Assembly: GCA_035536815.1 (NCBI GenBank)
Contig: DATLNJ010000033.1
Location: forward strand, 11,315-75,314
Direction of reading: 5' to 3'
DNA length: 64,000 bases
From: Frankiaceae bacterium
Lineage (GTDB): Bacteria; Actinomycetota; Actinomycetes; BP-191
Both the position numbers and the translations under genes were made by a program. Below are positions 51,491 through 56,678 of this stretch, piece by piece. The first letter of the stretch is position 1, and every line of letters begins with the position of its first letter. A model generated the notes under the pieces. The model did no database searches. It had not been told where the DNA came from and worked only from the letters and a program-made list of their open reading frames with translations.

Positions 51491-53686
51491 GTGCGGGTCC
51501 ACAGCGAGACCACGACGCTGGCCGCCGCGCCGGGCGACGACGTCCACGTGGACGTCGTCGTCACGAACACCGGCGACGTCATCGACGGCGTCACCGTCGT
51601 GGTCCACGGCATCGACGCGGCGCACGTCACCAGCACCCCGGCGGTGCTGCCGCTGTTCCCCGGCGAGTCCGGCCGGGTCGCGCTGCGGGTCGCGGTGCCC
51701 GCGTCGTTCCCGGCCGGCCGGCACGTGCTCGACGCGGAGGTGCGGTCGAGCGCACCCAATGCCCGCGCGGAGCACCTCGACGTCGAGCTCGCGGTCGCCG
51801 CGCGGCCGCGGCTGGCGCTCACCGTGCACCCGCCGGTGCAGCGGCGGCGCGGCCACTCGCGGCACCGGGTCGAGTGCCACAACGGCGGCAACGTCCCGCT
51901 GTCCGTGGTCCTCGGTGCGAACGACCCCGACAGCGCCGTGCAGGCGGCGGTGGACCGGCCGGCGCTGACCGTCGCGCCGGGGCGCACGGCGACGGCGATG
52001 CTGACGATCCGCGCCGCGCGGCGGCTGCTCGGCAACGACGTCGACAGGCCGGTGAACGTGCACGCGACGGCGACCGCGACGGGGTACGCCGGCGGCGGGC
52101 TCGTGTCCGGCCGCGGCCCGGCGGTGGTCGAGGAGGACGCGCCGGCCGTGCTGCGGCACCGCCCGGTCGTCGCGCGCGGGGTGCTCACGGCGGGCGTGCT
52201 GCTGCTCATCGTCGGGCTGTGGGCGGCGGCGTTCCTCGTCGGGCTTGAAACGGTGTTCGCCCGGGACCGGCTGACGAAGACGGCGCCGCCGTCGTTCTTC
52301 CTCGCCGCGGCCGGGGAGGCCGCCCCGCGGGACGCGCGGGCTCGCATCGCGGCGGTGCCGGCCGGGCTGCGCGGCGAGATCGCGGGCACCGTACGGGCGC
52401 GCAGAAGCCGCGCGCCGGTCGGGCGGGTCGTGGTGACGGCACGGCTGCGGCACGGCGCGGGCTTCGCCGCGACCGCCGCCACGCAGGCGGACGGCTCGTA
52501 CGTCGTCACCGCGCTGCCGCTCGGGACGTACTGCGTCGACTTCGCCGCGCCCGGCTTCGCACCGAAGGCGGCGTCCTGCGTGGCCGTCGCGCCGCAGCAG
52601 GCGACCCGGCTCGACGCGGAGGTGGACGGGCGGGCGGCGACCGTCAGCGGCTCCGTCGACACCGGCGGGCCGGCGCCGTTCCCCGTGACGACCGTCGAGG
52701 TGCGCGCGGCGGCCGGCGGCGCGCCGGTCGCGACGGTGCGGACCGACCGGCGCGGGCGGTACCGGCTCACGGGGCTGCCGGCGCCGGCGCGGTACCTGCT
52801 GCGGTTCCGCGCGCCGGGGTACCGCCCGGCGACGCTGGCGGTGACCGCCGAGGCGGGGGGGCGGCACACCGAGCCCGCTGTCCGGCTGTCCGCGGGCGAG
52901 GGCACGATCGCCGGGACGGTCGTCGACGCGACGGCCGGCACGCCGCTCGGCGGCGTCACGGTGTCGACGTCGCGGACCGGCGAGGTGCTCGCGACGGAGA
53001 CACCGACGCTCGGCCGCCCCGGCCGGTTCGCGCTGCGCGGGCTCGCGACGCCGGGCACGTACCTCGTGACGTTCACCAAGCCCGGCTACGGCGCGGGCAC
53101 GCTGGTCGTCCGGCTCGGTCCAGGCGGGTCGGCGACGCGGACGGTACGGCTGCGCAGCGGCGCGGGCGCGGTGACCGGGATGGTCACCGACGCCGCGGGC
53201 GCCCCGCTCGGCGGCGTCACCGTGACGGCTGGCGGGAGCGCCGTTCCGGCGCGGACCACGACGCTGACGGACGGCGACGGCAAGGGCGGCTACGCCCTCG
53301 CCGGGCTGCCGGTGCCGGGGTCGTACACGGTGACGTTCCGGCTGCCCGGCTACGCGGACCGGACGGTCCCCGTCGTGCTCGACCGCGCGACGCCGAGCGC
53401 GACGGTCTCCGCGGTGCTCGCGCCGGACGTCGGCGGCATCGACGGCACCGTCGAGGAGTGCTCGGGCAAGGCGGTGGCCGGAGCGACGGTGTCGGTCACG
53501 GACGGGCGCACGGCGCGGACGGCGGTGTCGGCCGCGGACGGGACGTTCGGCGTGGGCGGCCTGCGGCCGGCGACGTACACGGTGACGGTGTCGCGTGAGG
53601 GGCGGGGCTCGCGGACGACGCTGGTCGAGGTGCGGGCCGGGCGGCGGACGCCGGTCACCGTCGGGTGGGGGTCCCGGTGCGGGTAG
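51491..53686 (+). CDS. membrane protein: 2 N-terminal Ig-like modules - TM - about 5 carboxypeptidase-regulatory-like repeats
   Basis: VVVTNTGDVIDGVTVVV, TM GVLTAGVLLLIVGLWAAAFLVGL, and repeats of the form G.V.D..G.PL.GV.V......T..T...G.Y.L.GL.PG.Y.V.F..PGY. Confidence 0.75.
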   Translation: MRVHSETTTLAAAPGDDVHVDVVVTNTGDVIDGVTVVVHGIDAAHVTSTPAVLPLFPGESGRVALRVAVPASFPAGRHVLDAEVRSSAPNARAEHLDVELAVAARPRLALTVHPPVQRRRGHSRHRVECHNGGNVPLSVVLGANDPDSAVQAAVDRPALTVAPGRTATAMLTIRAARRLLGNDVDRPVNVHATATATGYAGGGLVSGRGPAVVEEDAPAVLRHRPVVARGVLTAGVLLLIVGLWAAAFLVGLETVFARDRLTKTAPPSFFLAAAGEAAPRDARARIAAVPAGLRGEIAGTVRARRSRAPVGRVVVTARLRHGAGFAATAATQADGSYVVTALPLGTYCVDFAAPGFAPKAASCVAVAPQQATRLDAEVDGRAATVSGSVDTGGPAPFPVTTVEVRAAAGGAPVATVRTDRRGRYRLTGLPAPARYLLRFRAPGYRPATLAVTAEAGGRHTEPAVRLSAGEGTIAGTVVDATAGTPLGGVTVSTSRTGEVLATETPTLGRPGRFALRGLATPGTYLVTFTKPGYGAGTLVVRLGPGGSATRTVRLRSGAGAVTGMVTDAAGAPLGGVTVTAGGSAVPARTTTLTDGDGKGGYALAGLPVPGSYTVTFRLPGYADRTVPVVLDRATPSATVSAVLAPDVGGIDGTVEECSGKAVAGATVSVTDGRTARTAVSAADGTFGVGGLRPATYTVTVSREGRGSRTTLVEVRAGRRTPVTVGWGSRCG

Positions 53687-55899: not shown

Positions 55900-56678
55900 C
55901 CGGCGTCGCGATCGGTGGCGTCCGCGTGACCGGCGCCGCGCGCGCCGTCGCCGGACGCACCGCGTCGGTGCCGGTCGAGGTCACCAACGGCGCCGGGGCC
56001 GGCGCCGAGGTGGTCGTGCGCGCCGTGGGGCTGGACCCGGCGTGGGCCTGCCGCCCGGTGCGGTGCGGGCCGCTCGCGGCGTCGGAGGTCGCGGCGGTAC
56101 GGCTCGCGGTCACGCTGCCGCAGTGGGCGCCGGCGGGGGAGTTCCCGTTCGTCGTCGCGACCGCGGGGCTGCCCGACGGCGCGGCGACGGAGGCCGACGC
56201 GCTGCTGGTCGTCGAGTGCGAGCCGGGGCTGCGGGTCGCGCTGGAACCGCGGGTGCCTCGCGGCGTGCGGCGCGCGCGGTTCGCGATCGCCGTGGAGAAC
56301 CCGGCGCGCCACGACGTCGTCGCGACGATCACGGCTGACGGGGTGCGGGGGCTGCGGCTGCGGCACCGGGTGCGCGAGGTGACGGTCGCGCCCGGCGCGC
56401 GGGTACGGGTGCGGGCCCGGGCGCGCGTGACCGGGCGGCTCGGTGGCGGCGAGCGGCGGCTGCCGTTCGCGGTCACCGCCGACGGCGGCGCGGGGCCGGC
56501 GCGCGCGGACGGGGTGTTCGTCGCCGAGCCGTGGACGGCGACGTTGCTCGCGCGGGCGGCGTTGGTGCTCGTGATCGTCGGCGTGTGGCTCGGCGTGACG
56601 CTGCTCGTCGTCGGCATCGTTGCCGACCGCGCGCACCGGCCGGCGAAGGGTCTCGTGCCCAGCGCGGGCGACGAGTGA
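55896..56678 (+). CDS. short paralog: 2 Ig-like modules - TM only
   Basis: ATGA overlap with the previous gene. VPVEVTNGAGAGAEVVVRAVGL. C-terminal TM LLARAALVLVIVGVWLGVTLLVVGIV. Confidence 0.65.
   Translation: MTGVAIGGVRVTGAARAVAGRTASVPVEVTNGAGAGAEVVVRAVGLDPAWACRPVRCGPLAASEVAAVRLAVTLPQWAPAGEFPFVVATAGLPDGAATEADALLVVECEPGLRVALEPRVPRGVRRARFAIAVENPARHDVVATITADGVRGLRLRHRVREVTVAPGARVRVRARARVTGRLGGGERRLPFAVTADGGAGPARADGVFVAEPWTATLLARAALVLVIVGVWLGVTLLVVGIVADRAHRPAKGLVPSAGDE

Follow-up and report, generated by a model that had tools for sequence, protein, structure and literature searches.

Three overlapping or abutting genes in a 64-kb stretch of Frankiaceae DNA (about 73% G+C; the whole of this stretch is called the window below) encode paralogous proteins, named here A, B and C. 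With moderate confidence, they are read as members of a conserved family of single-pass membrane-anchor proteins associated with contractile injection systems (CISs) of actinobacterial/Chloroflexota type, carried in this case by a locus that appears to be reduced. Each protein begins with a pair of immunoglobulin (Ig)-like modules followed by a single transmembrane (TM) helix, A and B continue into arrays of CarboxypepD_reg repeats, and the trio lies directly behind the gene for a DUF4255 cap protein, a position that is kept in other genomes. The family touches on the question of how the cytoplasmic CISs of Actinobacteria and Chloroflexota meet the membrane. Membrane adaptors are already known as a kind of CIS component; what appears new is the family itself, along with its organization as a triad and the way it is coupled to the cap gene. 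A literature search found no paper on the A/B/C family or on CarboxypepD_reg membrane proteins in CIS clusters.

Gene organization and protein architecture

The trio comprises the following genes:

51491-53686, + strand: paralog A, 731 aa; Ig pair at residues 1-225 (51491-52165), helix at about residues 230-252 (52178-52246), repeats at about residues 295-731
53677-55899, + strand: paralog B, 740 aa; Ig pair at residues 1-218, TM helix at about residues 219-241 (54331-54399), five CarboxypepD_reg stretches
55896-56678, + strand: paralog C, 260 aa; Ig pair, TM helix at about residues 218-243 (56547-56624), 17-residue tail

A preliminary description of this DNA had proposed three coupled genes immediately downstream of a DUF4255 gene, and the junctions bear this out. 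The Pvc16_N/DUF4255 gene (Pfam E=1.5e-27) stops at 51487, and A starts 3 nt on with GTG at 51491, served by a GGGAG ribosome-binding site. B starts with GTG at 53677 and overlaps the end of A (stop at 53686) by 10 nt, B and C share an ATGA overlap at 55896-55899, and the next gene, for a DUF4157 toxin, starts with ATG at 56704, 25 nt past the C stop at 56678. The G+C content at third codon positions (GC3) of the three open reading frames (ORFs) is 0.96-0.98, a strong coding signal. B had been given 744 residues, which corresponds to the longest ORF, starting at 53665. The frame stands and the start moves: 53677 was picked independently by a gene caller run on an identical contig of 8 kb and yields the N-terminus MRVAVSP, in agreement with the family consensus MRVxVxP, so that the 740-residue form is preferred. 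As had been stated, none of the three proteins can have a signal peptide, because no earlier in-frame start exists for A, B or C; the first β-strand runs from residue 2.

The N-termini are homologous and collinear (blastp E=3.6e-12 for A and B, 4e-5 for A and C, 3e-3 for B and C), which identifies the proteins as paralogs. One strongly hydrophobic stretch is present in each, at about residues 220-250 (A ~230-252, B ~219-241, C ~218-243), and forms the single helix that had been recognized behind the Ig pair. The (V/L)xVxNTG(D/N)V motif, at first attributed to all modules, occurs in each of the two modules of A and of B; C has degenerate versions (VEVTNGAG, AVENPARH). Beyond the helix, A and B carry tandem transthyretin-like repeats of about 85 aa that score above the gathering cut-off of Pfam CarboxypepD_reg (PF13620, 32.3 bits), with five stretches in A (E=8e-62, 206 bits) and five in B (E=3e-44, 149.7 bits). 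C ends 17 residues past its helix, and Pfam finds no CarboxypepD_reg stretch in it. A count of the repeat motif agrees with Pfam on five repeats each in A and B, so the numbers are 5, 5 and 0; the earlier figures of about 5 for A and none for C are retained, while the sixth repeat of B is lost. NCBIfam offers no model for any of the three paralogs, for the cap protein or for the toxin.

Fold and membrane topology of the N-terminal pair

An AlphaFold2 model of A residues 1-225, built with 21 sequences, consists of two β-sandwiches and has a pLDDT of 93.7 and a pTM of 0.80. Its top Foldseek matches in the PDB are tandem ASH/MSP proteins of the ciliary central apparatus, the SPD-2 domain of CEP192 and PapD chaperones (E=1e-8 to 1e-6), with low TM-scores of 0.3-0.5 for the two-domain unit against ASH/PapD structures; a search of viral structures returned generic Ig matches only. 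Relatives of the three proteins match Pfam HYDIN_VesB_CFA65-like_Ig, Cep192_D3, ASH and FixG_C at sub-threshold to moderate levels, and the matches of A, B and C themselves to ASH/PapD-like families fall below the curated cut-offs. As modeled, and with the Foldseek and relatives' Pfam matches taken together, the Ig pair falls in the ASH/MSP/PapD-like superfamily. The members of this group (HYDIN, CFAP65, CEP192 SPD-2 and PapD, and Pfam families including NPCBM_assoc) are the best structural matches, and their functions are not transferable to A, B and C.

The three proteins are predicted to be type II single-pass proteins with the N-terminus inside and the C-terminus outside, because a positive-inside bias in relatives, the lack of a signal peptide, fusions to cytoplasmic domains and the expected behavior of the insertion machinery all point the same way. 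Charges counted over the 15 residues before and the 15 residues after the helix in 105 relatives amount to 2.58 K+R and 0.16 D+E on the N-terminal flank and to 1.79 K+R and 1.91 D+E on the C-terminal flank, the positive charge being higher on the N-terminal side in 63 relatives and lower in 11. Other proteins matched by the same profile have the module placed between cytoplasmic domains (Pkinase, FHA or zinc-ribbon) and their first TM helix, and in one of them (P0126) an extracytoplasmic β-helix follows. A folded N-terminal tail of 220 residues without a signal peptide is not expected to be translocated during Sec/YidC insertion. The arrangement proposed at the outset, a cytoplasmic Ig pair with extracytoplasmic repeats, is thus supported as a prediction. 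The accompanying remark that such a site would be unusual for these Ig modules has to be withdrawn: the nearest structures are ASH/MSP/PapD-like, a group that is cytoplasmic in eukaryotes and fused to FHA and kinase domains in bacteria, so a cytoplasmic location is normal for this Ig type. The bacterial FHA/Ser/Thr-kinase Ig-TM proteins (for example P0028, P0049, P0022 and P0126) resemble A, B and C in module family, in the cytoplasmic side of the modules, in the single helix and in having an extracytoplasmic domain. They differ in their signaling domains, in their many module copies and in lacking both the MRVxVxP start and the organization as a triad.

A conserved family linked to the cap gene

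An exhaustive profile search built from the three N-termini recovered 6574 cluster representatives at E<=1e-3, of which 265 reach E<=1e-30. When the top 150 matches were filtered by start motif and position of the first TM helix, 99 proved to share the build of the window proteins, with the match beginning at about residue 2 and the first TM helix at 195-265. Most of these same-build relatives are long (89 have at least 450 aa, mostly about 700-900; 10 are shorter), and their consensus begins MRVxVxP...PG...V.V.NT..VI.G..RVLG.DP.W. Database names for the relatives are generic, either hypothetical protein or carboxypeptidase regulatory-like domain-containing protein.

A scan for the cap protein in one genome per species gave five loci (L001-L005). 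The order of a − strand AAA ATPase gene followed by cap, A, B and C is kept in a Frankiaceae metagenome-assembled genome (MAG; L001) and in Georgenia ruanii (L002), with orthologs of the ATPase at the same position in both, and likewise in L007, L009 and L010. Window A is 52% identical to its ortholog in L001 and 44% to that in L002, compared with about 29% to its own neighbor B; the same pattern holds for B (55% in L001 and 40% in L002) and for C. Since one-to-one orthology exceeds the identity between the window paralogs, the three are old and have each been conserved individually. In Chloroflexota, members of the same build stand beside cap-sheath-tube clusters in L003 (442 aa and >695 aa) and L005 (hmmsearch E=1e-20 to 2e-33).

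Metagenomes were scanned with a narrow alignment of the B-type N-terminus only, which gave 36 loci; reference proteins were mapped onto these, and each denominator below counts the loci with enough flank. A cap gene lies within 4.5 kb upstream of the B-type gene in 21/23 loci, an A-type paralog directly upstream in 25/25 and a third paralog downstream in 20/22. The AAA ATPase is near the B-type gene in 9/13 loci, Tail_P2_I in 10/14, a zinc-ribbon TM protein in 10/14 and eCIS_core in 6/12. VgrG, gp25, Baseplate_J, Tail_P2_I, PAAR-like and tube-initiator-like genes recur near the module in related loci, and in sister loci Baseplate_J is the gene upstream of Tail_P2_I. The fullest example, L041, is collinear through CIS_tube+LysM (Afp7-like), VgrG, gp25, Baseplate_J, Tail_P2_I, the zinc-ribbon TM protein, cap, A, B and the third paralog. 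The linkage to DUF4255 thus holds very firmly across unrelated genomes, and because cap, A and third paralog stay together across loci, the proteins do not behave as ordinary standalone adhesins.

Several other features of these loci were recorded. In L002 (8831-9872), L021, L024, L029-L031, L038 and L044 the cap or ATPase gene is closely preceded by a PAAR-like DUF4280 gene; a gene with a Septum_form domain (five cluster members in all) precedes DUF4280 in L002, L029 and L044, and the window has neither. In L015, a DUF4157 protein (3279-4691) whose deaminase domain is AID/APOBEC-like illustrates the turnover of toxin modules beside the triad. Viral contigs scanned with an alignment of Tail_P2_I gave no relatives. 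Two candidate structural genes were discarded: the 540-aa gene beside the L019 module, considered as a sheath, encodes SpoIIE, and the ORF upstream of the Afp7-like gene in L040, considered as a tube, is a low-complexity ORF of 412 aa.

The locus in the window

The genes around the trio are as follows:

48774-50672, − strand: AAA+ ATPase with winged helix, Afp15/Cis15-like (Pfam AAA 2.3e-25, 90 bits; WHD 1.8e-12), divergent from the cap operon
50816-51487, + strand: Pvc16_N/DUF4255 cap or tail-terminator protein, Afp16/Cis16-like (Pfam 1.5e-27, 96.9 bits), first gene of the operon
56704-58092, + strand: polymorphic toxin with a DUF4157/eCIS_core domain, an Ala/Pro/Ser linker and an RNase A-like C-terminus (eCIS_core 6.6e-28, 97.2 bits; RNAse_A_bac 3.6e-8)
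58067-58528, − strand: small protein that joins a double zinc ribbon through a Pro-rich linker to a C-terminal TM helix (DZR 0.0023; ortholog DZR 1.4e-7)
58534-59055, − strand: Tail_P2_I/TIGR02242 baseplate-wedge protein, Afp12/Cis12-like (Pfam 3.1e-6; TIGR02242 1.5e-13; CIS12_fam 1e-6), convergent with the cap operon
59310-60530, + strand: IS110-family-like transposase, directly upstream of Tail_P2_I, recognized by eye from the translation
60548-61585, − strand: rex, beyond the IS110-like gene

The window thus holds a DUF4255 cap gene, an AAA ATPase gene and a DUF4157 toxin gene, which are among the genes by which a CIS cluster is recognized, and its cap protein is 34-38% identical to those encoded directly before the sheath gene in the canonical clusters L003-L005. 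A 499-aa ORF at 59052-60551 (− strand), tried as a baseplate gene, is spurious, being an antisense frame of the IS110 transposase. The 3′ end of the toxin gene overlaps the 3′ end of the convergent zinc-ribbon gene by 26 nt, and no recognizable immunity gene follows the toxin.

The preliminary description had seen in A, B and C a graded series of long, long and stub. Other loci do not follow this design: the third paralog has 1840-2411 aa in 15 loci and 2661 aa in L036, making at least 16 in which it spans 1840-2661 aa, and its ectodomain is built of CarboxypepD_reg/PEGA-type repeats. In the closest relative, L001, the C frame is open for >1742 aa, up to the end of the locus, and window C matches only residues 4-257 of it. 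To judge by these comparisons, the 260-aa C is a lineage-specific truncation of a paralog that is normally about 2000 aa long. A search downstream of window C found no repeat remnants, and the DUF4157 toxin gene occupies the place of the C ectodomain, of which about 1700 aa are lost. Baseplate_J holds the position of the IS110-like gene in L012, L013, L015, L041 and L044. By gene content the window locus is a reduced one, because C is truncated, the toxin gene sits where the ectodomain would be encoded, and Baseplate_J is missing with an IS110-like gene at that spot. Since the C ectodomain is lost and structural CIS genes are absent from the window, the module either operates with CIS genes at another site in the genome or is a remnant in decay.

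Proposed role and relation to known systems

In the proposed arrangement, the two ASH/PapD-like β-sandwich modules of each protein would face the cytoplasm, the polypeptide would cross the membrane once, and a CarboxypepD_reg rod would extend into the cell wall, with repeat numbers of normally about 5 in A, about 5 in B and about 20 in the third paralog. The triad could then form a hetero-oligomeric docking complex, spanning membrane and wall, for a CIS particle that is otherwise cytoplasmic. The Ig pairs would serve as a cytoplasmic platform that binds a CIS component. Coupling of the cap gene and the triad in one operon puts the cap hexamer first among the candidate partners, ahead of the baseplate wedge; the rods may fix or sense position in the envelope. 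Hetero-oligomerization and contact between the Ig pairs and the cap protein are plausible proposals. The proposal of a docking complex follows from a predicted topology and a type of cluster that match those of CisA, together with the coupling to the cap gene; functionally, but not in sequence, the triad is most likely analogous to CisA.

CisA (SCO4242) of Streptomyces coelicolor is a bitopic membrane protein with its N-terminus inside that is needed for CIS firing (eLife 2025, PMC12237407). Streptomyces CIS particles are cytoplasmic, CisA is required for their contraction at the membrane, and it has been proposed to bring the cytoplasmic CIS there (PMC12237407). It consists of a disordered N-terminal region, one TM helix and a C-terminal domain resembling substrate-binding proteins, and its gene follows cis12 (PMC12237407). 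A, B and C share with it a gene location in a CIS cluster and a single-pass topology, N-in/C-out, which in their case is predicted. Measured against its published description they do not belong to the CisA family: CisA is the product of a single gene after cis12, whereas A, B and C are three paralogs encoded after the cap gene, in which a folded Ig pair of ASH-like type is combined with CarboxypepD_reg rods. The CisA position, downstream of cis12/Tail_P2_I, is held in the window by the zinc-ribbon TM protein (58067-58528), which may be a further adaptor. There is room for another adaptor because CisA is absent from 45/120 type IId genomes (PMC12237407).

Compared with canonical extracellular CIS (eCIS) and type IId clusters (Afp, PVC, CIS-Sc; Geller 2021, PMC8213781), the window shares the cap, the AAA ATPase, DUF4157 toxins and Tail_P2_I, and its sister loci share Baseplate_J, gp25, VgrG, PAAR-like and tube-initiator-like genes. 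The difference lies behind the cap gene, which is followed by sheath and tube in the canonical order (L003-L005) and by three membrane proteins in the window. [quoted passage not shown] The likeness is one of concept, a dedicated membrane anchor for a contractile machine; proteins and folds are unrelated, and anchoring there is at the baseplate, whereas the order of genes in the present loci is a weak pointer to the cap end.

To our knowledge, CisA, described in 2025, is the only CIS membrane adaptor so far. The present proteins would represent a second candidate adaptor family, unrelated to CisA and much larger; at E<=1e-30 it has 265 cluster representatives. Its architecture is clear, its cytoplasmic part is modeled with confidence and it keeps a fixed place next to the cap gene. 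A cultured organism, Georgenia ruanii JCM 15130, carries the complete triad.

Alternative explanations

A number of observations weigh against a membrane anchor for a contractile tail. Sheath and tube genes were found in 0/35 and 0/35 of the A/B/C loci within flanks of 10 kb, and Pfam and tblastn searches for sheath (Phage_sheath_1) and tube (Phage_T4_gp19) found none in the 64-kb window, although the same searches detect both in the positive controls L003-L005. Baseplate_J, gp25, spike/VgrG and the Afp7-like gene are likewise not found in the window, nor is a remnant of Baseplate_J, which leaves Tail_P2_I as the sole baseplate gene. The preliminary description had not noticed that the window lacks the sheath, tube, spike and Baseplate_J genes, the usual companions of a cap and ATPase. 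In L014, L016, L019 and L036, on contigs of up to 293 kb, the AAA-cap-A-B-C module stands alone among housekeeping genes, its neighbors encoding a major facilitator superfamily transporter, an oxidoreductase, SpoIIE, DnaJ, cytochrome b and an acyl-CoA dehydrogenase. With no sheath or tube nearby and with such stand-alone modules, the case for dependence on a contractile tail is carried by the cap, ATPase, baseplate and spike genes only. Two further points concern the proteins themselves: the flank charges of the window proteins taken alone are indecisive (K/R 3 versus 3 for A and for B), and modules 1 and 2 share weak sequence similarity, the hhalign alignment (71% probability) being out of register and no proof of a duplication. 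The missing sheath genes would suit an autonomous apparatus, a membrane machine of the AAA ATPase, Pvc16_N and A/B/C that would have taken over two former CIS parts, would manage without a contractile tail and might, for example, handle or export DUF4157-tagged toxins; the window, as a module plus toxin with no structural genes in 64 kb, fits it. We consider this unlikely. The cap and ATPase are ordinary relatives (34-41% identity) of those in sheath-bearing canonical clusters; Baseplate_J, Tail_P2_I, gp25, VgrG, tube-initiator-like and PAAR-like genes, which make sense only with a tail, adjoin the module in many loci; three of the stand-alone modules (L014, L016, L019) have no DUF4157 gene within the 10-kb flanks; and, the flanks searched being 10 kb, a sheath operon may lie further off. 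A broader idea would treat the cap, the AAA ATPase and A/B/C as a trans-envelope complex of a kind undescribed in monoderm bacteria. It is conceivable because the module is tightly conserved, can stand alone and has not been seen within 10 kb of a sheath gene, and it is put forward here as a speculation with a lowish chance of being right. Such a complex might be a fixed firing site resembling the T6SS, in which Ig platforms would clamp the cap end or the baseplate of a cytoplasmic tail and the rods would span the wall, or a sheath-less descendant, in which the former cap and the ATPase would handle DUF4157 toxins at the membrane. Should the module turn out to function sheath-free, it would exemplify the reuse of phage-tail parts in another machine.

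The triad might instead replace the tail fibers (Afp13), with rods that sense a target or envelope stress and a helix that relays the firing trigger. These clusters have no recognizable tail-fiber gene, the third paralog has a CarboxypepD_reg rod of about 2000 aa that is long enough to pass the actinobacterial wall, and relatives join the same cytoplasmic modules to FHA or kinase signaling domains. Against this, the ectodomains are generic repeats in which no ligand-binding domain was identified, and window C has no ectodomain at all; a sensing role is doubtful as a separate explanation, and it is also compatible with the anchor reading and inseparable from it by sequence. The reduced state of the window invites a different view, that of a broken CIS cluster whose remaining genes are functionless. 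In every other locus that allows the length of C to be judged, it is longer than in the window; of the structural genes only Tail_P2_I is left, Baseplate_J being gone and an IS110-like gene lying at the break; and an integrated element and other foreign-looking genes adjoin the locus. Yet all nine genes are intact ORFs with GC3 of 0.95-0.98 where computed, ribosome-binding sites and overlapping stop/start junctions, the truncated C retains its full Ig pair and helix, and the toxin is complete with both domains, so that mere decay is given only a small chance. It is highly improbable, finally, that A, B and C are ordinary envelope or adhesin proteins that neighbor DUF4255 by chance. The generic database names and the frequency of CarboxypepD_reg arrays in surface proteins would allow it, but the linkage counts contradict it, with the cap gene in 21/23 loci and the A-B-C order in 25/25 and 20/22, as do the overlapping or abutting junctions. 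The arrangement is common to the Frankiaceae MAG, Georgenia ruanii and many metagenome contigs, and members stand beside Chloroflexota CIS clusters. Of the marks of an adhesin, a signal peptide and an LPXTG or comparable export signal, the proteins have none: a signal peptide is not possible and the helix is internal, at about residues 220-250. The NCBIfam model MSCRAMM_SdrD, whose cut-off is 2500 bits, reaches 20.9.

Other features of the window

Downstream of the AAA ATPase gene lies a 420-aa gene (47440-48702, − strand) whose product starts MMPEKKKKKK; it has no Pfam or NCBIfam match and no counterpart in related loci, and in other loci its position is taken by a DUF4157 protein. Next to it, at 43102-47413, are genes for an HSP90-like HATPase_c_3 protein (696 aa) and, coupled to it, a TPR/TPR-S protein (739 aa), a pair that resembles NTP-dependent conflict systems. 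The HSP90-like ATPase, TPR and sigma-Kelch neighbors were rejected as parts of the system, as they are not conserved in L001-L005. Near the end of the window, a 754-aa ORF (61710-63974, − strand) has no Pfam match and strong codon bias, and it overlaps high-GC3 ORFs of the opposite strand.

The region from 18 to 33 kb holds housekeeping genes, among them those for glycyl-tRNA synthetase, ppdK, dgt, dnaG and the principal sigma factor. ARAGORN places a tRNA-Ala (43635-43727) and a tRNA-Asp (59340-59433) inside protein genes; Rfam gives them no support and both are probably false positives. Genes for tRNA-Asn and tRNA-Met lie at 34739-34903, and the last 22 nt of tRNA-Met recur at 42782-42803 with 1 mismatch (chance expectation, 0 matches), which is suggestive of an integrated element of some 7.9 kb between tRNA-Met and its repeat. 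Such an element would hold the weak-coding stretch at 34.9-38.8 kb and a sigma70-Kelch fusion gene at 39680-42394.

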